This document shows positions 5,036 to 63,740 of a stretch of DNA of 64,000 nucleotides, one piece after another. The stretch is from the NCBI GenBank assembly GCA_028522875.1, contig GCA_028522875.1_3659.1, one strand, 5' to 3'. This stretch comes from a phage. The position numbers were made by a program, and so were the translations under genes. The notes under the pieces are model-generated. The model was not told the origin of the DNA. It ran no database searches and saw only the letters and a program-made list of their open reading frames with translations. The stretch's first letter is position 1; the number at the start of each line of letters is the position of its first letter.

Positions 5036-8000
5036 ATGGCTGATATTAAAGTTGTCAGAATTGAATCTCTTCCTGCCACTACCGCAGTGACAGAGGATGA
5101 TTACCTGGTTGTTCAACAACCAGACCTGACTCGTCGTGTAAAAATTGGCGATGTTGTCCATGTGGATGGGACTGTTTCTCATGTAATCTCCTTTAAGGAA
5201 GGTGGTAAGTTAAACGGCCCAATGGATTTTGCCTACTTCGAAGAGGAAGACCTCTACCTGCGTTGGAAAGGCGAATTTCCGCACACCGTTCCTGCACTAT
5301 CTTCACCGTACTCCGATGGTGGGATTACTGATGCTGCATGGATGGTATATACAGATCCATCATTAAGAGAGGAGCTGGAATCAACTATTGGCGCATCCAT
5401 GATTATGACAGCTGAAGGTCAGTCTGTCCAGGATGTAATGGATGTTACAGTTAAGACCGCCAACGATGCTAAAGCACTTGCACAGCGGGTAGATTTTGGT
5501 ACCGTGCACACTGTAGGCGATGTTATTCACCTTGTCAATTTTGTTGGCCCTGCAGTTATTGAAGAGGGAAGAACTACTAACTACCCTTCCGTAGCAGCTG
5601 GTGAAAAATTCCTGAACGGTGTGGTATCTCGTCGTGATACTACAACTGTTGATGGTATTTTCCGTGGCGCTACCTCCGGAGCTATGTATACCATTGCAGT
5701 AACCAACGGTGTAGCAACAACAAAAAGAATAGCACTTCGTGATGAATTTAAACGCCTAGAGGCAAACAACCCAACAAGAACCGTTATTCGTGCTGGTGAT
5801 GATGTAAACACAGCCGGGTACTTGCAGCTTGATGCAACAGGTCGTTGGGGCATGTGGAACCAACAGACATCTTCATGGCAACCTCTTGCTATAGAGCAAG
5901 GTGGTACAGGTGCCAGAGATGCCGCAGGTGCACGTATTAATTTAGGAGCTTTTTATAAACAACGTGCAGCCCTTGAGGCAAATTTCAATATTAACAATTT
6001 GACTGGCAATCAGGATGGTGTATACTACCAGCCCATGACTGCCAATGCCACCGAGGCAAATGGTTACCCAGCAGGTTCTGGTGCTGGTCACCTGATTGTT
6101 TGGCAGAACAATGCTAACGGCGGTGCAGGTTGTCGTCAGGAATACTATCCATTCTCTAACGTAGATGTTTGGTATTTGAGAACCTATCAGGCCAACACAA
6201 ATCAGTGGACTGCATGGCAGCCGATGGTCAGACCTCGTAACGATGATACCTTCAGATCTCATATCGGCCTTGGTAAAAACAACTCACCAGCCTTCGGGCA
6301 CCTTTACTTAGCTCAATACTCTGGAGATGTTAAATCTGCCTCAGGTATTCTCCATGGAGATAAATATAATACTGATGGTGTTCTTGAGCATGGTTATAGG
6401 ATCTACTCTGAGGTAAGAAACGACAATAAGGCTTGGTTGACAATCCACCTGCACAAAGGTGCAAAAGGATCTGAAACCCATAGATATTTAGGTTTCCGCG
6501 AAGACGGCGTGCTAGACTGCCCTAAATATATGCAGGTTGGGGATCTTACTGGTCAGCTGACAAACTGGGGACTCGGAGAGTGGATCCGTAGTTCAGGAGC
6601 AGAAAGAGGCTTCTGGGGATCCAAGAAAGCCGCCAAGATGGTCATCTGGGATGGTGGGATGGATGAATCCGGTAACGGCACTCTGGAATGGGGTGTTTAT
6701 AACAACCGGAAGGCCAAGTGGGAACCTTTACCGCAAGCCGCAGGTGGTACTGGAGCTACAACTTTGGCAGAGGCTCAGAATCTGTTTAGAGTTCCTATAG
6801 CTGCAGGCGTAAAAGATTTCTTAACGCTGCCAAGAACCGCAGGGATGGAAGATGGGAAATACTACCCGATTATAGTTAGAACAGATCCGTATTATGCTCC
6901 AACTACTGGCACCGATATTACCATAGTTACTAGGTCGTCATCTGGTGGTGACCCCATGAACTGTGCTACCTTACAGTGTCATTATAGAACTGGTGGGTGG
7001 ACAGATAGAGGGGACTCTTTCTACGGAGTAGTAAATTTCTACCAGAATGAAAAAGCAATTCTTGGGATGGTTGCTCCAACAAGGGGTAAACAAGAATATG
7101 TTGCTTTCTATGCAGAGGCGCGTGCTTTCCCTGTCAGCATATACGCAAGTAGAAATGTTTTAGAGGTGTTTACCAAAGAACAAGACTACCAGGTTGGTTC
7201 TGTAACAAACAATCAGGACGGTGTTAAGTTTTGTGCTCCGTTAGAGTCAGCAGACTTAAATCTTGCGATAAAGGGTGATAATGTAACTAATACCAGACCT
7301 CTTGCGGAGTTTAAAGGAACATCAGGTTTTTACACAGGCGGTGGTACTCAGTGGCACTACATCGGCACACCTGAACGCTATGCGGTGATGAGTAAAATGA
7401 CCATGCCTAAAGTTGAGCTATGGGCAGATGGTATCGACTACCTATGCCCTGGTAGTCAGACCACAAGGAAAGCACTGTTCTCTAATGCTGGATTCCAGGC
7501 AGCATCTGAAGGTACAGAGGACTTAATTAACAACACATTTACTTCCAAATGCGGCAAGGGTGCAGGTCTGAAAGGCCAGTCAGAGTTCAGGTCTACCCCA
7601 GAGGCTGGACAGGTAATTGTCAGAGATGTTGTTGGTTCCGCACATAAGTTCTTTAACTTCAACAAAGACGGCACATTCTACCCTCCTGGCGGTTATGTTT
7701 GCCAGACAGGTGCGGATTGGAACAATCAGTTTGGTAACACAAACCCGTCAAAAATAATGGCTGGTAATGTTAACGGACCTGAAGGTTCCATGGTTGTAGC
7801 AGGGTTGTCGGTTGGTTTTTCTGGAAATTATGCATTCCAGATGGCTGGTCGTCTTGATCAGTTATACACCAGGTCTATTGAGGGTGGTAATCATAGAGCG
7901 TGGAACAAGGTAATCCAACACCGTGGTCAAGGCTTGGGTAATAGCAATCTTAATGATTACAAAGCTGATCGTGAAGGTATTTATCATCAAGAGGCAAACT

Positions 8001-19453: not shown

Positions 19454-19465
19454 TCAGGAGATAAA

Positions 19466-20506
19466 ATGTCAAAACCTAGTTTTCCATTAGAGATTTGGGC
19501 AGAGGAGGATCAGGTTCTGCCTAACACCCACAGACAGAACAGGCTACGCCCGATTGATGATTTGTGGAGAAAAGGTTGGGATCTTGGTCAAAAGCCCTCA
19601 TGTGAAGAACTTAACTATATTTTCAATATGCTCGGAACTTGGGCAAAATACATTGCTGACGAGCAGATCCCCGCTCAAGAAGGCCGTTATCTGGTACGTG
19701 ATAATAACTTGAGTGATCTTTTGAACATTCCTGTTGCCCGTAGAAACCTTGGGATTATTACTAAGGAAGAAGCAGACGCCAGGTATGTAAAAGTTACAGG
19801 TGATACAATGACAGGCCCGTTGGGTTTGCAACGTATCAACTTTAAAGCTGCCGAGACAGATAAGGCTTGGATAGAGACAACTATTGGCCCAGATAAGACA
19901 ACTCTCGACTTTGGGCTAAGTGATAATACTGGGTCGTTTGATGATGGTGGTACATCTACAGTAGATGCGTTTCGTTGGAGATTCCAGCCAACTCAGCCGG
20001 ATATTAATCCAGAGTTCACTTTGATGTACCTTAACGCGATCACGGCTAACCGTGCGCTGTTGAAAGTGGTCGGCAATGTTGAAGTTGTCGATAACATGAG
20101 GTGCAATAACCTTACTATCAGCAATACAGCAACATTCACCAACTGTAATGTGGCTAGTCAGTTGACGACTGGGTCAGTGTATGTTAATGGAGGTGCAAGT
20201 TGTGACAGTATGGTTGTAAGAAGTCAGCACTGTGTTGTCGGTAACAGAAATGTGGTGCGCTCTGTGAATGGAGTGACGGCTAACGGTAACGGTGATGTAA
20301 CAATCACTATCCCGCAGACAGGTGTGCAAGACATCAGAATCGGTGCAAGACTTGTTGACGGCGTTTCCGAATCTCCAATTCGCAACGGCTACGTTGTCAC
20401 AGGCTGGCATTTCGGTGACAAAAAAGAGATGCGTGGTTCAACCTACTGGGCAGGACCTTTACAAAAACTTGTAAACGGTCAATGGATCACTGTTAATTAT
20501 GCATAG
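19466..20506 (+). CDS. tail fibre tip / adhesin paralog A
   Basis: 346 aa; RBS caggag; shares N- and C-termini with 21521-22564 (M.KP..PL.IWA..D.VL.NT ... W.G..QKLVNGQWIT..YA) with divergent centre. Confidence 0.55.
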   Translation: MSKPSFPLEIWAEEDQVLPNTHRQNRLRPIDDLWRKGWDLGQKPSCEELNYIFNMLGTWAKYIADEQIPAQEGRYLVRDNNLSDLLNIPVARRNLGIITKEEADARYVKVTGDTMTGPLGLQRINFKAAETDKAWIETTIGPDKTTLDFGLSDNTGSFDDGGTSTVDAFRWRFQPTQPDINPEFTLMYLNAITANRALLKVVGNVEVVDNMRCNNLTISNTATFTNCNVASQLTTGSVYVNGGASCDSMVVRSQHCVVGNRNVVRSVNGVTANGNGDVTITIPQTGVQDIRIGARLVDGVSESPIRNGYVVTGWHFGDKKEMRGSTYWAGPLQKLVNGQWITVNYA

Positions 20507-21470: not shown

Positions 21471-21490
21471 GTTCTCTAAAGTGTTAAAAT
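21462..21490 (+). promoter_or_regulatory. sigma70-like promoter TTGCAT-17-TAAAAT
   Basis: -35 TTGCAT 21462-21467, 17 nt spacer, -10 TAAAAT 21485-21490; upstream of fibre paralog B. Confidence 0.5.
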
Positions 21491-21520
21491 AGTCCTAAGG
21501 AATTTTCTCAGGAGAACGCG

Positions 21521-22564
21521 ATGACTAAACCAGTTATCCCTCTTGATATTTGGGCCAATCAGGATGTTGTGCTTGAAAATACGGGAGAGTTGAATAAGTC
21601 TCAACCAAAAAAAGAAGAGAGATTGAAAGGTTGGGATATGACACAAAGAGTGGCATGTGAAGTTGTTAACTTTGAACTTCACATGCTTTCTGCGTGGTTA
21701 AAGCATCTAACAGAAGATGTTGTCCCAGGATGGGATAATAGATTCTTAAGGGTCACTAATAATCTAGCAGACGTTCCAGACAAAGCTGCTGCACGTCAAG
21801 TTCTCAATGTATACTCGCCTGAAGAAATGGACGATTTGTATGTTGACAAGTCTGGAGACATAATGACTCAGACTCAAACTTTAGGCCTTCAAAGAATCGA
21901 GTTTGCATCTGCGTCAACAGACAATGCGGCAATATATACCACCATAACCTCAGACAAGACGATGATGGATTTCTGGATTATGGACAACATCGGTGGTGCT
22001 GACGGCACAGATCTTGATGATCCTTCTCACCAAATAGACGGGTTCCGTTGGAGATTTCAGCCTTCTGGTGGGCAGCCTGTGTTTTCGGCTATGAAGCTCA
22101 ATGCTATAACTGCCAACCGTGCAAGACTGGCTATCCAAGGAAATCTTGAATGCAACGATGCAAAAAGTTCCTCTGCAAATGCCAATGCAGTTACTATACC
22201 AAGAGCCACTGTTAATGGACAACAATCCTGCGGAAGCGCTCAAATAGGTGGAAGAGTTGATTGTAACGATGAAACCGTCAGGGGCCAATATGCAACAGTT
22301 GGTGGAAGAAACGTGGTCCGCAGGGTAAATGGTAACGGCGCAGACAGTAGTGGTAACCTTACTATTCCTATGCCTAGCAGAGGGGTTGATGATGTAAGGA
22401 TAGCAAACCGTTTCAAAACCACCTACAGAGAGTCAAGAGTCTACCCTGGACATGTGATGTGCTCTGGTAACTACGCTTATAAACACCCTTATCAAGGTGA
22501 CTACTGGACAGGTGCTATCCAAAAACTTGTAAATGGTCAATGGATCACTATATCTTATGCTTAA
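21521..22564 (+). CDS. tail fibre tip / adhesin paralog B
   Basis: 347 aa; RBS caggag; conserved termini shared with 19466-20506, divergent central region. Confidence 0.55.
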   Translation: MTKPVIPLDIWANQDVVLENTGELNKSQPKKEERLKGWDMTQRVACEVVNFELHMLSAWLKHLTEDVVPGWDNRFLRVTNNLADVPDKAAARQVLNVYSPEEMDDLYVDKSGDIMTQTQTLGLQRIEFASASTDNAAIYTTITSDKTMMDFWIMDNIGGADGTDLDDPSHQIDGFRWRFQPSGGQPVFSAMKLNAITANRARLAIQGNLECNDAKSSSANANAVTIPRATVNGQQSCGSAQIGGRVDCNDETVRGQYATVGGRNVVRRVNGNGADSSGNLTIPMPSRGVDDVRIANRFKTTYRESRVYPGHVMCSGNYAYKHPYQGDYWTGAIQKLVNGQWITISYA

Positions 22565-32511: not shown

Positions 32512-33078
32512 TTATTCAAACTGCAATAGTAAGTCCACCACCGCGCTAGGTCTGTCAACAAATTCCCCAGGTCCACATGCCCACAGAGGGTATCCGTCCA
32601 CATACCTCCAAATCCAACCTGCAGTGTGTAGCTCAAGCAGGGCAGTACCGTCCTTACTGTCAACCACTCTTTCCCACAGTGTTGGGCAGCGAAGCTTGAG
32701 AATCGGATCACCTCCCTTATACCCGTCCATGTAGATACCCATTGCAAAGTTCAGCATCATCTTTTTGTGCACTGATCTCTTACTGAGGGTGCTCATCACT
32801 TCCTCTTTGTGAATGTTTGTAAGCTTCTCTTTGGCTACCCGCAGATCGTTGCAACCATTGTTCAGCAGATCTTCCAGACACTTGATCCGGAGGTCGTGAA
32901 TGTCTTTGTCGTGTACCGTTGGCACAGGGTCGTAGCGGTATAGCACTGTTGATACAAGGTTGCTCGGGTGTGGGTCTGACAGCAACCCATAACCCCAATA
33001 CTCTTCTGTATCTGAAAGGACAAGACACCCAATGTCTCTGTCAAGCTTTCCTGTGTTGTAAGCCACATTGACCGCCAT
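32512..33078 (-). CDS. hypothetical protein
   Basis: 188 aa; RBS ggagc; no recognised motif. Confidence 0.45.
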   Translation of the reverse strand: MAVNVAYNTGKLDRDIGCLVLSDTEEYWGYGLLSDPHPSNLVSTVLYRYDPVPTVHDKDIHDLRIKCLEDLLNNGCNDLRVAKEKLTNIHKEEVMSTLSKRSVHKKMMLNFAMGIYMDGYKGGDPILKLRCPTLWERVVDSKDGTALLELHTAGWIWRYVDGYPLWACGPGEFVDRPSAVVDLLLQFE

Positions 33079-33080
33079 GA

Positions 33081-33326
33081 CTATAGCTCCACTAGCAAAG
33101 TGCTTTCAAAGTGCCGTTCATGCAGACCGTTGTAAGGGACCACTTCCACAACACCATCACGGACATACGGGGCCATCATAGTGGTATAATCTCCAAACGG
33201 GTTGGTATTGTCACTAACCACAACCACCTTCTGCCCTTCCTTGGCAGAGTGCCAAATAGATCTGCACTTCATCAGGTGTTCTAGAGCTCCAGGTAAAATT
33301 TTGTTACGTTCTTTACGGGTCTTCAT
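33081..33326 (-). CDS. hypothetical protein
   Basis: 81 aa; RBS ggagc; overlaps upstream stop. Confidence 0.4.
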   Translation of the reverse strand: MKTRKERNKILPGALEHLMKCRSIWHSAKEGQKVVVVSDNTNPFGDYTTMMAPYVRDGVVEVVPYNGLHERHFESTLLVEL

Positions 33327-33775
33327 AACAGGTATAGCTCCTTATGAAAGTGGTCTTTTAATTTCTCACTGAGAAACTTCTTGATACCTTCCTCTAAAGT
33401 GTTTTCGATGTAGTCCAGCTTAACTGCTTCGATGGACATATCATAGATCGCCAGCTCTAAGCTGTCAAGTCCCATCATAGCATGAACCATAAGATTTTCA
33501 TCTTCAGATACATTCAGTGGACTTCCTATAACATCTGTAGGTAGGATAGTTTCCCAATTATTCTGGGGGGTAGTTCTCCCACCATCCACTTTACGGCGCA
33601 GTTCGAAGGTGTTCTTAGTGTAGAACACTTCATAAGAAACGATACGACTATCGCTTTCATAATAAACGAAGTTCAGGTAGGAGCCTAGCCGCAGTCGGCA
33701 AACTTCTACCCCAAACCATTGTTTCTTATAAGAATTCAGGCTAATGCTGTCGCATTCACGTTTGCTCAACACGGC
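33323..33775 (-). CDS. hypothetical protein
   Basis: ~150 aa; probable GTG start at 33775 preceded by aaggag (track lists TTG at 33772). Confidence 0.4.
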   Translation of the reverse strand, partial: AVLSKRECDSISLNSYKKQWFGVEVCRLRLGSYLNFVYYESDSRIVSYEVFYTKNTFELRRKVDGGRTTPQNNWETILPTDVIGSPLNVSEDENLMVHAMMGLDSLELAIYDMSIEAVKLDYIENTLEEGIKKFLSEKLKDHFHKELYLL

Positions 33776-33788
33776 TATCTCCTTTTTG

Positions 33789-34022
33789 TTAATCTTCGTA
33801 AATCAGGATTTCTGCTTTAGGTTTTCGTGCTTTCAGGTCCAGCTCTATCCAGTGCACCATAGCTGTTTCAAGAAAAACAGCTTGGATGCATCCGTCCTCA
33901 GCGTGCCCCACCAACATAACGAGATCTTCACCTTCGTCATCTGCATCACGAACATAAAGAATCTCTCCAGATTCAAAGTCTTTCACAACCTGATTGCTAG
34001 ATAATTTACGAATTTTTGCCAT
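33789..34022 (-). CDS. hypothetical protein
   Basis: 77 aa ORF in operon context. Confidence 0.4.
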   Translation of the reverse strand: MAKIRKLSSNQVVKDFESGEILYVRDADDEGEDLVMLVGHAEDGCIQAVFLETAMVHWIELDLKARKPKAEILIYED

Positions 34023-34023
34023 A

Positions 34024-34287
34024 TCAGAAACCCTCTAAAAAGCTCTTGTAGAAAACAATCTCAGTATCCACACCAGTCACAATCTTGTCGTTCCTGATTT
34101 CATCGGTAAGATAGGTGTCAAAACGCAGAACCTGTGTGGTGTTGTCACACATCCACTCAGCTGTGACCATTGCGAAAATCTTAGCATCTTCATTATCTGG
34201 TGTGAATGTTACCACCTCACCGCACTTAAACTTTTCGATAGGCTGAGTGTTAGCTTTCGGTTCTGCGATAGTGATTTTTGTGGTCAT
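34024..34287 (-). CDS. small protein, member 3 of a tandem 87-aa paralog triplet
   Basis: 87 aa; RBS aggaggag; shares M(A/T)T...F.s..K.kK......G(T/E)VV ... lp ... vtE.D..I.ilGE pattern with the two upstream genes. Confidence 0.5.
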   Translation of the reverse strand: MTTKITIAEPKANTQPIEKFKCGEVVTFTPDNEDAKIFAMVTAEWMCDNTTQVLRFDTYLTDEIRNDKIVTGVDTEIVFYKSFLEGF

Positions 34288-34550
34288 TATTCTCCTCCTT
34301 CTTTTGAATAGCTTGTCTCTCCAAGGATGGTAATTTTGGTGTCAAGCTCTGTAACTTTCATGTTTGGCGGCAGATCGTACAACTCATTATTTTCTAAATC
34401 GAACCCCCACACACAATGTTCTCCTGTTTTGACAATCATAACTATGTTTTGAATACCGTCTCCGTCGCAACTTACCACGGTCCCACACGGAAAACTGTCT
34501 GCACGCTTTTTGTTCTTCACTTTAGAATTGAATACAATGCTAGTAGCCAT
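34287..34550 (-). CDS. small protein, member 2 of a tandem 87-aa paralog triplet
   Basis: 87 aa; ATGA overlap with neighbours; paralogous to 34024-34287 and 34550-34813. Confidence 0.5.
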   Translation of the reverse strand: MATSIVFNSKVKNKKRADSFPCGTVVSCDGDGIQNIVMIVKTGEHCVWGFDLENNELYDLPPNMKVTELDTKITILGETSYSKEGGE

Positions 34551-34813
34551 TATTGTTCCTCCACCATAACTTCGCCAAGAATTTCTATGCAGGCATCCAT
34601 TTCTGTAACAACCAAACTGTGAGGTAGTTCTACAAACACCTTTCTGAACAGGTCAAATACCCCAACATATATGTTTGCAGGATGTGATTTTACAACAAGT
34701 GCTGTATTCACATCCCCAAGTTCATCAACAAACATCACCACAGTGCCTGGAGCTACTGAGGACAGATACTTCTTAGTTTTACGGTTTGATGCAAATTTTA
34801 ACTCTGTTGCCAT
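34550..34813 (-). CDS. small protein, member 1 of a tandem 87-aa paralog triplet
   Basis: 87 aa; RBS gaggagg; paralogous to the two downstream genes. Confidence 0.5.
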   Translation of the reverse strand: MATELKFASNRKTKKYLSSVAPGTVVMFVDELGDVNTALVVKSHPANIYVGVFDLFRKVFVELPHSLVVTEMDACIEILGEVMVEEQ

Positions 34814-34828
34814 AAATAACCTCCTCTC

Positions 34829-36310
34829 TTACTTAGCGTACTCGATTAATTCCACAGTTTTCCCAAAGCTCGGGATATAATTTTTATTATACCCTTCGGT
34901 TAGAACCCATAAAGTATCGTACTTTTTCCACTTGTTGTCAACAGCCTTTTGTTCAAAGTTATGCTCAAAGTATAGGTCGGTCAGGACGATGACATCTTTT
35001 GCATTCGGTATGTTGGCATCCAGATACTCGAACACGCAAGCAGCTGTTGTGCCCCATGTTGAGTGGACCTCATAGTTAATCATCTCGTCTATGTTGCCGC
35101 GAGTGTATACTTTAACCTCTCCAACCTCAGTTGACCAACAGAACATTGTAACCTTAAACTCTTTATACAGATTGCACAATCCGGTGATTTCATTGAACAT
35201 TTTCTTTAAAGTTCTTTGAGAGATCGAGCCAGAAACGTCTAAAGCCACCACAATATCTATAGTGTTTTCCGGATTACGACCAGGAACAATAACGTGCTGG
35301 TTCTTGTTTATAGCCCCAACTTTTCGCATTGTGCTGGTCAAAGACCCAGATCGGCGACCAGGTTTTCTGTAGGTCAGTTCAGCCTTTCGTTTAGACAACA
35401 TGCGTTGCTTAATGATGTCTATATAGTTGATTACAGGCTTACCTCTGTTCTTGACAAACTCACGCACCGCCTCGGGGCAACGGCCTCCGGACGCTTGCAT
35501 TGCTGCCTCCAGCATATCACCAGAGTCCTGCATGGCCTGATCTTTATCAGATTGGCTGATTACAGGTTGTGGCTGATCATACCCCATAGCTTTTCCAAGA
35601 TCATCACTGGTGCCACCGTTCCCACTCATGTGATCATCTGTTTGTCGCTTATCACCTTGAGAGTTCTCACCTTTACCGTTCTTACTTTTACCGTTATTCT
35701 GATCTCTTTGCTTATCAAGAACTGCATAAACGTTCTCAGCAATCCATCCATGAAACTTCATATCGCAGTAGCAGCTGGCTAAGAAGCCAAAAGGCTTACC
35801 TTTCACGAACGTAGTGCTTTTCCCCTTCGGGAAGAAAACACAAGGAGGCTTGCTAAAGTCCACCACAAGTCCTGTGTTGATAACGTGATCACAAGCAATA
35901 TTGAACAGTTCCGGCTCAAAGCTTTTACCACGGACCAGGTGATCACAGATAATATGCCCCACCTCATGCGACAGAAGAAAGGCCACCTCTTTCACAGATT
36001 TGGGGGAATAGAAAACCTCAGCCATCTCAAACTGCTCGTCAGTTAGAGAAGCCTTAAGAATAGCCTTACGTTCATCAGCCAACCCCATAATGAACTCAGG
36101 ACTGTAATAGATGCGTTTATGGTCGGTTGCCATGGTGGAGCACCATGTATGGTTTTCTACGAACTGCAATCCTGACAGCAGTGTGCCATAAAACGGCAGC
36201 TTTTCAAGGAGATACATACGTGCAGCCTGCAACATTCTCAGGGCATCATCTTTTTGTGAGGCAATGATTTCTGAACTTCTGATATCCATTAAAACTCCAG
36301 AAGGGGCCAT
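34829..36310 (-). CDS. vWA domain protein with N-terminal HExxH metallopeptidase-like motif (DUF2201-like, MoxR partner type)
   Basis: 493 aa; HEVGHIICDH (HExxH); C-terminal vWA MIDAS motif DIVVALDVSGSIS (DxSxS); acidic/Gln-rich linker; start codon sits in a GC hairpin. Confidence 0.55.
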   Translation of the reverse strand: MAPSGVLMDIRSSEIIASQKDDALRMLQAARMYLLEKLPFYGTLLSGLQFVENHTWCSTMATDHKRIYYSPEFIMGLADERKAILKASLTDEQFEMAEVFYSPKSVKEVAFLLSHEVGHIICDHLVRGKSFEPELFNIACDHVINTGLVVDFSKPPCVFFPKGKSTTFVKGKPFGFLASCYCDMKFHGWIAENVYAVLDKQRDQNNGKSKNGKGENSQGDKRQTDDHMSGNGGTSDDLGKAMGYDQPQPVISQSDKDQAMQDSGDMLEAAMQASGGRCPEAVREFVKNRGKPVINYIDIIKQRMLSKRKAELTYRKPGRRSGSLTSTMRKVGAINKNQHVIVPGRNPENTIDIVVALDVSGSISQRTLKKMFNEITGLCNLYKEFKVTMFCWSTEVGEVKVYTRGNIDEMINYEVHSTWGTTAACVFEYLDANIPNAKDVIVLTDLYFEHNFEQKAVDNKWKKYDTLWVLTEGYNKNYIPSFGKTVELIEYAK

Positions 36311-36322
36311 TGGCCCCTGTCA

Positions 36323-37366
36323 TTATTTAACGTGTTTGAAAATACCTGCCAACTCGGTCATTGTCATGCGGGTGGTCTTCATAAGATCTGTCATAGCTTT
36401 CTCCATAATTGGAGATACTACCATAAAGTTTCCTTTAGTGAAACCTTTATTCCAGTCGGTCACCAACAGTGGTTTAAGTCCAGCTCCAAGACGTTCACCA
36501 GTTAAAGCACAGCATTTGCGAATATACGAACTCTTAAATTGGCTGAACGACAGATCAACTTTCATACCTACATCGTAGAACGTTTGACAATAGAAAGTGT
36601 AAGCTTTGGCAATCTCAACATCATCAGGTAGTGCAGGAACCTCTTCTGTAAGCTCCTCTTCGACCTCCTGAGTCTCTTTTTCCTCTTCATGCACCTGTTG
36701 CGTCATTTCTTCAATCTCTTCTGTGATAGGCTCGTTTACAATGTCGGAAATGTGCTTCTTGGGTGCACGATAAGTAACTTTAGACATCGGTAGCATATCT
36801 TCCTCCTCTTCTTCGTCAAAGAGTGCTAGTTTATCCTCTTCCGTTCCATATTGCAAGATGAAATCTTCAAAAGTATAATCACCTTTCAATTTCTCCATAC
36901 GCTCTTCGCTCAGGTGGAGCATCATCTGCTGGACAATTTTTCGATCAGTTTCGTCTTTAATCAAGACTGCAGTCTTTTTATCTACCAGACAGTCCTTTAG
37001 AGAGTTGCATCTCAATCCCACCACACAACAGTTATCAACCGCATAAGGACCTTCATCATCTATCCGCTCCAGAGATGGGTAGAAAGGATTTCCCAGCCCG
37101 TTTTCATCTGTGTGCATGTCAAAAGGTATAAGGGTATAGTCGCATACTCCATCTCCTAAAAGTTTTTTACCAAATAGGAGGTATTCTTCCCATGACAGGT
37201 CGAACTCTATATCTCGTTTCCGTGCATTATTCTGTTTGCGTCTATATTTTTTGAGCAAGCGCTCTAACTCTTCTGGTGTATAATATTTTTCAAGATTCAT
37301 GAGTCGTCTCTCGTGCTCTGTAAGTGAAGAAATCGTATCAATTGTCTCAACAGATGTCAACATCAA
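36323..37366 (-). CDS. HNH endonuclease (HNH_3-like His-Me finger) fused to acidic C-terminal region
   Basis: 347 aa; motif PSLERIDDEGPYAVDNCCVVGLRCNSLK resembles HNH_3 (s.dRId...gY...N...v....N..K); Glu-rich C-terminal half; internal MSKVTYRA repeated at start of gene 38631. Confidence 0.5.
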   Translation of the reverse strand: MMLTSVETIDTISSLTEHERRLMNLEKYYTPEELERLLKKYRRKQNNARKRDIEFDLSWEEYLLFGKKLLGDGVCDYTLIPFDMHTDENGLGNPFYPSLERIDDEGPYAVDNCCVVGLRCNSLKDCLVDKKTAVLIKDETDRKIVQQMMLHLSEERMEKLKGDYTFEDFILQYGTEEDKLALFDEEEEEDMLPMSKVTYRAPKKHISDIVNEPITEEIEEMTQQVHEEEKETQEVEEELTEEVPALPDDVEIAKAYTFYCQTFYDVGMKVDLSFSQFKSSYIRKCCALTGERLGAGLKPLLVTDWNKGFTKGNFMVVSPIMEKAMTDLMKTTRMTMTELAGIFKHVK

Positions 37367-37373
37367 AAACGTG

Positions 37374-37402
37374 TTGACTTTACTCTAACTCCACAATATA
37401 GT
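37374..37402 (+). promoter_or_regulatory. sigma70-like promoter TTGACT-17-TATAGT in divergent intergenic region
   Basis: -35 TTGACT 37374-37379, 17 nt spacer, -10 TATAGT 37397-37402; 40 nt upstream of ATG 37443. Confidence 0.5.
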
Positions 37403-37442
37403 GCACCCATTCGAAAGAAAACTAACATAGGAGCACTTACTT

Positions 37443-38342
37443 ATGGCAAATCTTAACAGTTTTAGTACGCGGTGGAAACAGGACATAACAACCAATCTTT
37501 CAGCTGGGGACATCCTTTCTGCAATTTACGAGGCTTTAGATGATAAAGCTACTTCAAAAGCGGTTTGTACCAACCCACTAATTCCTGTAGTGATGAAGGT
37601 TATTGAGCGCAGATTGGTATCTGGGTCTGATAAGTGGACATATTTAGATAATGAAGGACACACCTATTCCAATGGGTACGTCGATATAAAAGTAGAATAC
37701 GCGGTATCATACCGCCGGAGCGGTTCTGTAACTTTCAACTTCTCTGGAGGTTTTCGATCTCTGGCTACCTCACCTTTTGTTTCCTCAGAGGAGAAGTATG
37801 AGCTACCATTTCTTTGGATGATGGCTAACGCGACAGGAAAAACCCCCGTTAGCATCCGAGTAAAATACAACTACAACGGATCTAGTAAGATCTATGCCGA
37901 AAGTGTCTCAGCAAGTTTTTATTTTGTGATGGGGGATGGAATCCTCAAACATATAAAGATGTGCGATATGCATGATGTTATAAATGAAGTGACTGATAAG
38001 AATGTTCTAGTGAAAGACCTCAACAATTTTTATACACCCGGAGACTATTACGTCAGCCGTCCACTGTGCATCTTTAATGCCGCACACCCTCTAGGTGAGT
38101 ATTTGATCGCCAATAGCGATATTGCCAATAACCGCTTCGAGGTAGCAAGAGTTCAGAATGAGGTATTGACATCTTGCAAGAGCGGTGATAAGTTTACCGA
38201 AGAAGAGATGGGTGTTTTAGAAATGATGGGATATAAGTGTAGCCTTTGGGTAGATGAGGTGTTTAATGATTGCATCTATGGACAGGATATTTACCCATTA
38301 AAGAAGTATACTGATACAAGTTTAATTTATGCGAGGGTTTGA
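37443..38342 (+). CDS. hypothetical protein
   Basis: 299 aa; RBS aggagc; first gene of rightward early block. Confidence 0.5.
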   Translation: MANLNSFSTRWKQDITTNLSAGDILSAIYEALDDKATSKAVCTNPLIPVVMKVIERRLVSGSDKWTYLDNEGHTYSNGYVDIKVEYAVSYRRSGSVTFNFSGGFRSLATSPFVSSEEKYELPFLWMMANATGKTPVSIRVKYNYNGSSKIYAESVSASFYFVMGDGILKHIKMCDMHDVINEVTDKNVLVKDLNNFYTPGDYYVSRPLCIFNAAHPLGEYLIANSDIANNRFEVARVQNEVLTSCKSGDKFTEEEMGVLEMMGYKCSLWVDEVFNDCIYGQDIYPLKKYTDTSLIYARV

Positions 38343-56318: not shown

Positions 56319-56394
56319 CAAGAAGTAAGATTAGATATAAGATGCTTCACACAAACAAAGCGTTGATTTTTAAATAACTAAGGAGACTGCCAAG

Positions 56395-56649
56395 ATGAAA
56401 ATTACTTTGAAGCCGGAATGCGTTGCAAATGACCGAGCTTTTAAAGATTGCACAGTCGGTGCAATCTATGAAGCAGAGTTTTGTGAGAACCCTCTGGTAA
56501 AAGCCCTTCTGGAAGAAGGGGCCCCTTTATCACAAGAAGAGATTGATGAGCTGGAAAACTCAGCACAGTGCCTTACCTTTAAAGATGATGAAGGAGACTC
56601 TGTCTGGTGCACTGTTAATGAAGTAGTTTTTGTAAAACCTGAACATTAA
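56395..56649 (+). CDS. small protein, paralog of 56713-56985
   Basis: 84 aa; RBS aaggag; shared K.KP(E/D)...(N/K)D.AF(K/R)DCT ... (F/I)KDD(E/Q)GD.V.CT pattern. Confidence 0.45.
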   Translation: MKITLKPECVANDRAFKDCTVGAIYEAEFCENPLVKALLEEGAPLSQEEIDELENSAQCLTFKDDEGDSVWCTVNEVVFVKPEH

Positions 56650-56652
56650 TAC

Positions 56653-56681
56653 TTGACAACAGTGATAGGGCCTAATATAAT
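56653..56681 (+). promoter_or_regulatory. consensus sigma70 promoter TTGACA-17-TATAAT, with -10 inside a 9-bp perfect inverted repeat
   Basis: -35 TTGACA 56653-56658, -10 TATAAT 56676-56681; GATAGGGCC (56664-56672) and GGCCCTATC (56682-56690) flank TAATATAAT. Confidence 0.55.
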
Positions 56682-56712
56682 GGCCCTATCAAAACGAAAG
56701 GGGACCACAGCA

Positions 56713-56985
56713 ATGACCAAACAATATCAACGAATTAAAGCCAAGGTTAAGCCAGACTATCTGGAGAAAGACTCTGCTTTTCGGGACTGCACAGCCGACA
56801 AAGTTTACACAGGGGCCGTCCTGTTGAACGATGAACTTGAAGTAGATATTCTGGGTAAAGAGGCCACTATTAAGGACGACCAAGGCGATTATGTTTGCTG
56901 CACCACACGTGAGCTAGAAATCTTAGAATACTTCGGTGAAATCTTCACCTCTCTTGATGATTACTTAGATGATGAGGAAGCGTGA
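56713..56985 (+). CDS. small protein, paralog of 56395-56649
   Basis: ATG 56713 with RBS aaagggga; track start 56653 rejected because it overlaps the consensus promoter. Confidence 0.45.
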   Translation: MTKQYQRIKAKVKPDYLEKDSAFRDCTADKVYTGAVLLNDELEVDILGKEATIKDDQGDYVCCTTRELEILEYFGEIFTSLDDYLDDEEA

Positions 56986-63212: not shown

Positions 63213-63457
63213 TTACCTGCCATGATATTTTAAAATCCTTAGAAAATCAGAAAATGGATCGAAAACTAAAATGGATTTTTCAGAGTAGGCGCGACAAGCT
63301 GAATCACTCATCCTATCGTTTGCACCATATTCCAGACCACCATTACAGATTTCCCGCACATGCTTACATCTCGCTACTAGAACTTCCTCCACTCACCCTT
63401 GACCTTTTATAGCAATAATCCAACCACTATCTTGAAGTTGCGGTGCAGCTTTCCAGG

Positions 63458-63633
63458 TACTCGATCTGTTTTTCGTTTCAAATATTGAATTTTCTGAAAA
63501 TTTTTCTCGATAAATTTCTCAGTACTCGATCTGTTTTTCGTTTTCTGAATCGGATTTTCTGGAAATCGTTCCGGATCTCGACCTGAAATTTTTGGGGACG
63601 AAATCGATTTTTCGTTTTCAGAAATGGATTTTT
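63458..63633. repeat. iteron-like direct repeats in non-coding AT-rich region
   Basis: gtactcgatctgtttttcgttt at 63458-63479 and 63523-63544, related cgatttttcgttttc at 63605-63619; recurring aaatggattt units at 63190, 63254, 63271, 63622. Confidence 0.55.
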
Positions 63634-63740
63634 AAAATTTGTATATGGAAATATTTTAGGAGGTATTATTTTATATAGAATTGTCACGGTAGGTAATTAG
63701 CATGCTAACTAAATTTATGAAATGCGAAAAGTTCTCATTT

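Follow-up and report, generated by a model that had tools for sequence, protein, structure and literature searches.

The 64,000-nucleotide stretch of phage DNA analysed here (the window; contig GCA_028522875.1_3659.1 of assembly GCA_028522875.1) contains a minus-strand array of small genes, which we refer to from upstream to downstream as g3, g2, g1 and g0, and the array consists of two parts: an exchangeable cassette of deeply diverged alleles, occupied either by g3 and g2 together or by a single gene of the type of gp014 in phage rV5, and a constrained part composed of g1 and then g0. A preliminary description of the window had drawn attention to g3, g2 and g1 as three adjacent minus-strand open reading frames (ORFs) of 87 amino acids plus a stop codon each, which the ORF list confirms, and had interpreted them as a tandem triplication undergoing rapid diversification. 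The surrounding region (33000-37500) shares 98.7% identity with Escherichia phage LL12 and matches 119 phage records, nearly all of which belong to the genus Vequintavirus (rV5-like myoviruses). The rV5-like phages are among the commonest myoviruses of E. coli and are part of therapy cocktails, and most of their early genes have, to our knowledge, no known function.

Searching 50,697 phage records with tblastn identified g1 in 118 of them, at an amino acid identity of at least 90% in every one, and these Vequintavirus records are of two kinds. In 44 of the 118, g3 and g2 are both present at high identity (at least 90% for g3), and in the other 74, rV5 among them, there is a single family gene approximately 40% identical to either g3 or g2; this gene, gp014 in rV5, encodes 85 amino acids and represents a third subtype equidistant from the other two. 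The window carries two genes of the PHROGs family phrog_10698 and rV5 carries one, and the g1 and g0 products are 99-100% identical to rV5 gp015 and gp016. Alignment of the window with rV5 DNA gives 94.6% identity as far as position 34799, 15 nucleotides into g3, and 97.2% identity again from position 34298, 11 nucleotides before the start of g1, with no DNA similarity detected by blastn between these two points.

Comparison of the locus in 18 further phages sampled from the 118 records shows that the distance from the stop codon of the metallopeptidase gene, which lies directly upstream of the array, to the start of g1 is 537-541 nucleotides in two-gene phages and 266-275 nucleotides in one-gene phages. 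Nucleotide identity of the flanking genes across the two groups is 94-99% and gives no separation by cassette type; the flanks of the window are as similar to those of JES2013, which has the single form, as to those of Murica, which has the double form. Pr121LW, although assigned to the species of Murica, LL12 and CarlMeissner, has the single-gene form, and g1 alleles cut across the cassettes, with 98% identity between ECP26 (double) and locus L004 (single), and 92% between Aya (double) and locus L005 (single). Because flanks, species and g1 alleles do not follow cassette type, we conclude that the cassette is exchanged by recombination in conserved flanks among near-identical genomes. A scan of IMG/VR with g1 recovered only two loci, both with the single gp014-type haplotype. 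We also considered rV5 gp014 as a fusion of g3 and g2 generated by unequal crossover; this was rejected, as a comparison by quarters revealed no chimeric pattern, with about 40% identity to both genes and neither half favoured.

Relationship between the array genes is clearest for g3 and g2, which are 38% identical and align with a local score of 103, compared with 23.7 +/- 4.2 in 1000 shuffles (z=19), and which match phrog_10698 at 7.6e-43 and 4.8e-41 respectively, covering the whole 87-position profile. The pairwise similarity of g2 and g1 is weaker (z=4.7, a score reached by 1 of 1000 shuffles), that of g3 and g1 is not significant (z=1.4), and g1 matches phrog_10698 at only 0.078, so that by the criterion of a full-length profile match neither g1 nor g0, which has no match, is a member. 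However, g1 reaches 20.8 bits against a profile built from the g3/g2/gp014 family, with a maximum of 9.3 in 5000 shuffles, and hhalign supports the match with a probability of 92% and E 6e-7 over 73 columns. For g0 the pairwise scores are z=3.1-3.7 to g2 and g1 and z=1.3, not significant, to g3; the family profile scores it at 7.3 bits, a value reached by 5 of 5000 shuffles, and hhalign provides no support (probability 1.6%, E 0.03). When the same profile is run against all six-frame ORFs of the window, the best four are g3, g2, g1 and g0, in that order.

Chance likeness between unrelated small proteins of similar composition is an exceedingly improbable explanation of these results, even though the two non-significant comparisons with g3 and the lack of hhalign support for g0 could be cited in its favour. 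The score between g3 and g2, their matches to phrog_10698 at 1e-41 to 1e-43, a g1 profile score above all 5000 shuffles together with its hhalign E value, and the finding that four adjacent genes are the four top-scoring ORFs of the whole window all speak against it; shuffles and profile refute it for g3, g2 and g1, and g0 alone remains. On the strength of these alignments we regard g3 and g2 as clear paralogs, g1 as a distant member of their family, and g0 as a probable fourth member. The proposed triplication stands insofar as paralogy beyond chance extends to all three genes, but g1 is distant enough to be detectable by profile only, and the amino acid motif said to be shared among the three is essentially that of g3 and g2. 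The common length of 87 amino acids is partly coincidence, since family members elsewhere are 83, 85 and 88 amino acids long.

The same four-gene array is present in a distant relative found in public assemblies (L006/L008), and its genes differ greatly in their similarity to those of the window. The L006 metallopeptidase is 82% identical and the next downstream gene 60% identical to their counterparts in the window, and the orthologues of g3 and g2 are 57% and 64% identical; g1 is 97.7% identical where its neighbours are at 56-82%, and g0 is 94.8% identical. At the nucleotide level L006 g1 is 90-92% identical to Vequintavirus g1, whereas the L006 flanking genes are 61-74% identical. A block that is about 90% nucleotide-identical between flanks of 61-74% indicates that g1 and g0 have been exchanged horizontally between lineages. 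We note that the aligned segments (L006:5258-5756 and window 33789-34287, the g1-g0 block) are 90% identical in nucleotide sequence.

More remote members of the family are few. An 83-amino-acid protein of another uncultured phage (P0025) is 63% identical to rV5 gp014 and represents a fourth cassette-type sequence, and a g1 homologue that is 81% identical (P0029) is encoded in uncultured phage contigs without a close relative in the phage collection, in which the metallopeptidase is 47% and the protein resembling Srd (Table 1) 37% identical to those of the window. When 1.84 billion representative proteins were searched exhaustively with the profile, three true family members and no other family came up, and word-index homologue searches recovered the family alone. 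One further candidate, a 533-amino-acid repeat protein (P0026), was judged spurious, its six short matches being to a repeat, ELPANLKVGG, of leucine-rich type.

The duplication that gave rise to the array is ancient: synonymous sites are saturated between the paralogs and no DNA-level repeat is left in the array beyond a chance 16-mer. A codon alignment of g3 with g2 gives 48% nucleotide identity, and the saturation makes it impossible to estimate the ratio of nonsynonymous to synonymous substitution rates (dN/dS) between the three copies. The three cassette subfamilies (g3, g2 and gp014 types) are 35-41% identical to one another, and each has an orthologue in a distant lineage at 57-64% identity. 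Among orthologues, for which few alleles per type are available and the values are pairwise, dN/dS exceeds 1 in no estimable comparison: it is 0.01-0.02 for g1 against rV5 and L006 and about 0.09 against the most distant g1 homologue, 0-0.10 for g0, 0.22 for g3 against its distant orthologue, and, within types, 0.12-0.38 for g3, 0-0.15 for g2 and 0.02-0.13 for gp014. Across 16 alleles of g1, which has 87 codons, 58 codons show purely synonymous variation and 8 carry amino acid changes, and nucleotide identity within the genus falls to 80% while the protein remains 93-100% identical. Purifying selection on g1 is thus very strong. The synonymous diversity of g1 was also considered as a unique hotspot and dismissed; it is about twice the local baseline, but there are similar peaks elsewhere in the 5.4-kb locus.

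These values bear directly on the earlier interpretation of the array as a recent triplication whose copies diverged rapidly under positive selection in an arms race. That interpretation accounts for the low identity between copies (38% and about 20-28%), and g3 does have the highest dN/dS among close alleles, with 12 amino-acid-changing codons and 9 synonymous-only codons among seven alleles. However, the saturation of synonymous sites and the loss of any DNA repeat, the origin of the subfamilies before the divergence from lineages with flanking genes at only 56-82% identity, the restriction of all estimable dN/dS values to below 1, the identity of at least 95% within each type for most of its records and the extreme conservation of g1 leave it largely refuted and, in our estimate, very unlikely. 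Rapid diversification is therefore not borne out, the paralogs being ancient, no ratio reaching 1 and g1 ranking among the most conserved genes of the region. The existing variation is instead attributed to the swapping of whole ancient alleles by recombination and not to fast point divergence.

The features of the locus are collected in Table 1. The annotations of LL12 and Murica list g3, g2 and g1 individually as hypothetical proteins and assign a ribosome-binding site to every one of them; in both, the site of g3 is at the position that matches its Shine-Dalgarno sequence in the window. The junctions between the genes differ from the four-nucleotide ATGA overlaps of the preliminary description; the overlaps at 34550 and 34287 are of a single nucleotide, in the form TAATG, and the g3/g2 junction, CAATAATGGCT, is without any ATGA. 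On the coding strand they read CAA-TAA-TGG (g3/g2) and GAA-TAA-TGA (g2/g1), in which TAA is the in-frame stop codon and its last A begins the ATG. A GGAGG motif lies 7 nucleotides upstream of the g2 start and 6 nucleotides upstream of the g1 start, within the last codons of the preceding gene, and GAGGG lies 8 nucleotides upstream of the g0 start. The layout taken earlier to imply translational coupling is upheld in this modified form, and the array genes are probably translated as a coupled unit, because the one-nucleotide TAATG overlaps are each accompanied by a Shine-Dalgarno sequence within the gene before.

Table 1. Features of the small-gene array and its operon (window coordinates)
Feature	Coordinates	Strand	Description and basis
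g3	34550..34813	-	87 aa (amino acids), phrog_10698 member, subfamily 'g3'
g2	34287..34550	-	87 aa, phrog_10698 member, subfamily 'g2'; structural model all-beta, an SH3-like barrel
g1	34024..34287	-	87 aa, phrog_12861; distant, highly conserved family member
g0	33789..34022	-	77 aa, phrog_12046; probable remote fourth member; starts 1 nucleotide after the g1 stop
Spacer	34814..34828	-	15 nucleotides between metallopeptidase stop and g3; Shine-Dalgarno GAGAGGAGG for g3
Exchangeable cassette	34299..34798	.	stretch without DNA similarity to rV5, which has 230 bp there instead, coding for one gp014-type paralog
DUF2201 putative metallopeptidase with VWA-like domain	34829..36310	-	Pfam DUF2201_N 3e-28, DUF2201 3.6e-11
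Srd-like / HNH-like protein, annotated 'anti-sigma factor'	36323..37300	-	first operon gene; LL12 annotation, PHROGs
Sigma-70-type promoter	37332..37360	-	putative operon promoter, TTGACA-17-TACGAT with TG; promoter scan

The predicted promoter coincides, when mapped via the alignment, with the annotated promoter P11 of rV5 (record 6685-6713), and it probably drives the operon that includes the array. The Srd-like gene, whose longest ORF extends to 37366, matches phrog_3118 (HNH endonuclease) at 8e-113, phrog_4592 (decoy of sigma70) at 3e-15 and phrog_1400 (Srd) at 3e-10, and a MoxR ATPase is encoded in a divergent operon according to the LL12 annotation. The gene that follows g0 (33323-33772, minus strand) encodes 149 amino acids and matches phrog_6790, named 'tail protein', at 2.6e-58, a name that it also has in the rV5 RefSeq record; it shares the operon with the Srd-like gene. 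In the rV5 reference (NC_011041.1, 7756-9217; L003:1257-2718) the metallopeptidase gene appears as two genes, gp012 and gp013, of which gp012 is named 'HNH endonuclease', and in the window and other phages it is a single DUF2201/VWA ORF of 486-493 amino acids; the split is likely a frameshift or sequencing error compounded by a misleading name.

A structural model of g2 generated by AlphaFold2 from a seven-sequence family alignment is all-beta (predicted local distance difference test, pLDDT, 80; predicted template modelling score, pTM, 0.65) and is predicted to form a small barrel of five to six strands that can be superposed on known SH3-like and Tudor-like members of this fold class, so that g2 is modelled as a generic SH3/Tudor-like small beta-barrel. 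An independent model of a g3-type protein in BFVD agrees with it at a template modelling (TM) score of 0.91. A Foldseek search of predicted viral structures gives clearly significant matches only to relatives of the phage itself, Pfam gives no family at E<=1 beyond chance-level matches, NCBIfam gives none, and a sequence search of the PDB with the family profile gives no match at E<=10. The array proteins are not members of CarD_TRCF_RID or an equivalent Pfam family, and neither sequence nor fold searches led to a relative of characterised function. General Pfam, PHROGs and NCBIfam scans provided no match to an anti-defence family, and these did not include a dedicated search with anti-defence profiles.

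Experimental information on these genes comes from a 2025 preprint describing genome-wide transposon sequencing of the BASEL phage Bas54 (MaxBurger) (10.1101/2025.11.20.689424), a phage with the single gp014-type haplotype that was examined on two hosts. By sequence comparison bas54_0052 is identical to g0, bas54_0053 corresponds to g1 (86/87) and bas54_0054 is of the gp014 type. All three are non-essential on E. coli K-12, with 12/12, 13/15 and 17/17 TA sites hit respectively (10.1101/2025.11.20.689424, suppl. file 9), and the Srd-like gene is likewise non-essential in Bas54 (10.1101/2025.11.20.689424). On a clinical isolate, insertions in MoxR (log2 fold change -7.23) and in the metallopeptidase gene bas54_0055 (-2.20, q 0.009) are depleted, and MoxR counters a predicted defence system, DS-28 (10.1101/2025.11.20.689424). 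The gp014-type gene, g1 and g0 are accessory and dispensable in the laboratory, and a host-specific need for them, as would be expected of counter-defence genes, was not seen on either of the two hosts with Bas54. The Bas54 homologue of the 33323-33772 'tail protein' gene is also non-essential, with a weak, non-significant depletion on the clinical isolate (log2 fold change -2.28, q 0.195). We note that which clinical isolate lies behind the numbers in Data S6 is ambiguous, as the sheet in supplementary file 9 of 10.1101/2025.11.20.689424 is titled 'resampling_K-12_vs_CFE303' and its command line and data files refer to sample 311 (CFE311). Searching the literature for accessions, locus tags and PHROG numbers found no paper on the array genes, including the two-gene g3 and g2 cassette, and the BASEL paper provides no phage-by-phage phenotype attributable to cassette type.

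The interpretation that we prefer, and to which we give roughly even chances, is that the array encodes early accessory proteins that bind host or competitor proteins, with the cassette supplying exchangeable alleles of binding specificity. The array proteins would be stand-alone binding modules made early in infection, their targets would be proteins of the host or of competing elements, and they would be of benefit under particular conditions only, such as host takeover or counter-defence; g1 would be directed at a conserved target, possibly acting together with the Srd-like protein, and the cassette alleles at a variable one. An anti-defence role is plausible, and a more specific form of this proposal, in which the cassette is a long-kept polymorphism of SH3-like binder alleles, each directed against a different variable host immunity or competitor protein, while g1, with the Srd-like gene, addresses a conserved target, is offered as a tentative possibility. 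Several points weigh against the preferred interpretation. The orthologues are not depleted on the clinical isolate, with log2 fold changes of -1.32 (not significant) for g0, +0.33 for g1 and +0.46 for the gp014 type (10.1101/2025.11.20.689424). Early expression is a prediction from the promoter only, the haplotype analysis covers 18 phages sampled from the 118, and the common fold is that of the g2 and g3-type models, the g1 model, from a 3-sequence alignment, being unusable (pLDDT 40.5). Moreover, the generic fold of g2 says little about function, and Foldseek returned no PDB match at E<=0.001.

The neighbouring genes suggest a different role, in which the small proteins serve as adaptors, substrates or regulators of a counter-defence module formed by MoxR and the VWA/metallopeptidase protein. 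Both VWA domains and SH3-like barrels serve as modules of protein-protein interaction, g3 begins just past the metallopeptidase stop in the same operon, and this synteny is kept throughout Vequintavirus and in L006; in addition, the MoxR of Bas54 has been shown experimentally to act against DS-28 and the metallopeptidase is depleted along with it. However, because the gp014-type and g1 orthologues are not depleted where MoxR and the metallopeptidase are, the small genes are not obligate partners of MoxR/VWA, and the metallopeptidase is 98-99% identical in both haplotypes, showing no co-variation with the cassette. The remote contigs point in the same direction. In one of these (L010) three genes separate g1 from the DUF2201 gene, and in a related 2.7-kb contig (L017) the gp014-like P0025 lies in another context, upstream, and the contig has no DUF2201 gene. 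We therefore consider a role in the MoxR/VWA module quite improbable.

The same two contigs bear on a narrower alternative, in which g1 and the Srd-like protein act together in takeover of host RNA or transcription, with g1 serving as a Tudor-like adaptor that contacts conserved host machinery, for example RNase E or RNA polymerase, and the cassette copies derived from g1. The L010 homologue of g1 stands alone and ends 2 nucleotides before the start of the Srd-like gene, and the two genes behave as one presence/absence block, since the segment that contains them (L010:3995-5321, 1327 bp) is replaced in L017 by 265 bp with a 51-amino-acid ORF (L017:2061-2325). In Vequintavirus g1 and the Srd-like gene are in one operon, the strong conservation of g1 fits a conserved host target, and Srd of phage T4 reportedly stimulates the RNase E of its host (Qi et al. 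2015, as cited in PMC7430671). On the other side, joint presence and absence is seen in one instance, which involves a short contig, the matches to known folds are generic and come from the g2 model and not from g1, Pfam gives no match to CarD_TRCF_RID or any other family, and both genes are non-essential in Bas54, and we regard this alternative as unlikely. It is the proposal of accessory binding proteins with exchangeable specificity that we carry forward.

Other paralogs and records came to our attention in the course of the analysis. A second tandem pair of small paralogous ORFs (56374-56982, plus strand) shares 32% identity over 84 amino acids (E 2e-9); a profile search shows it to be unrelated to the family of g3, g2 and g1. 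Two plus-strand genes of about 350 codons (19454-20503 and 21488-22561) encode paralogs with 42% identity (E 5e-90) and probably correspond to the pair of short-tail-fibre paralogs that the BASEL paper describes for Vequintavirinae. At 63410-63700 overlapping ORF segments on both strands are about 50% alike over some 50 amino acids, a hint of an internal repeat, and Tandem Repeats Finder reports no repeat there. Finally, 16 'Campylobacter phage' records (MG0656xx, host C. jejuni) are rV5-like and share about 97-98% identity with E. coli phages, which makes their host label doubtful; the one record examined is marked UNVERIFIED.

If the more specific proposal of long-kept binder alleles is correct, the array would represent an unrecognised counter-defence or host-takeover family, members of which are swapped between near-identical genomes and even across genus-level boundaries. 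Near-identical phages that differ by a 500-bp or a 230-bp cassette of homologous small proteins provide a natural experiment, and the cassette adjoins a MoxR and VWA/metallopeptidase module recently shown to counter a bacterial defence system. Should the alleles set host range or defence evasion, they would offer easy handles for engineering and for the prediction of phage-host compatibility; otherwise, the locus illustrates that diverged tandem small genes need not signify rapid evolution, and that g1 can be among the most conserved genes of its region, yet dispensable in the laboratory.

Part of this picture was already known, in that the genes are annotated as hypothetical proteins and grouped in PHROGs, where the genes of the window match phrog_10698 (g3 and g2), phrog_12861 (g1) and phrog_12046 (g0) over approximately their full length (E 5e-41 to 9e-62). 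The three families are listed there separately and with 'unknown function', and the link of g1, and possibly g0, to phrog_10698 is unrecorded. This link, the two-haplotype cassette and the different rates at which g1 and the cassette genes evolve appear to be new, although all three are instances of the accessory-gene hot spots and mosaicism familiar from phage genomes. At the level of structure, the modelled barrel resembles SH3-like barrels such as Tudor, KOW, the barrel of ribosomal uL2, EF-P domain I, the C-terminal Tudor domain of UvrD/PcrA and the RNA-polymerase-interacting domain of CarD, but at an identity of only 5-17% and, unlike them, with an extra N-terminal strand and an acidic tail, so that the likeness is one of fold class only. 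Proteins of phages N4 (Gp21), vB_EcoP_SU7 and Erwinia phage Cronus are similar in size (70-90 amino acids) and predicted to form a barrel (TM 0.58-0.65), but with identities of 12-22%, nearly all E values >1e-3 and no characterisation of their own they add no mechanism. A further parallel is with the variable accessory loci of lytic phages, as outlined in 10.1101/2023.04.06.535777, in which fast-evolving accessory genes lie between conserved flanks. Similarly, the small genes of the array differ completely between genomes with flanks at 94-99% identity and are dispensable in the laboratory; the array differs from the loci outlined there in that its alleles are not unrelated genes but are homologous to each other and to g1.

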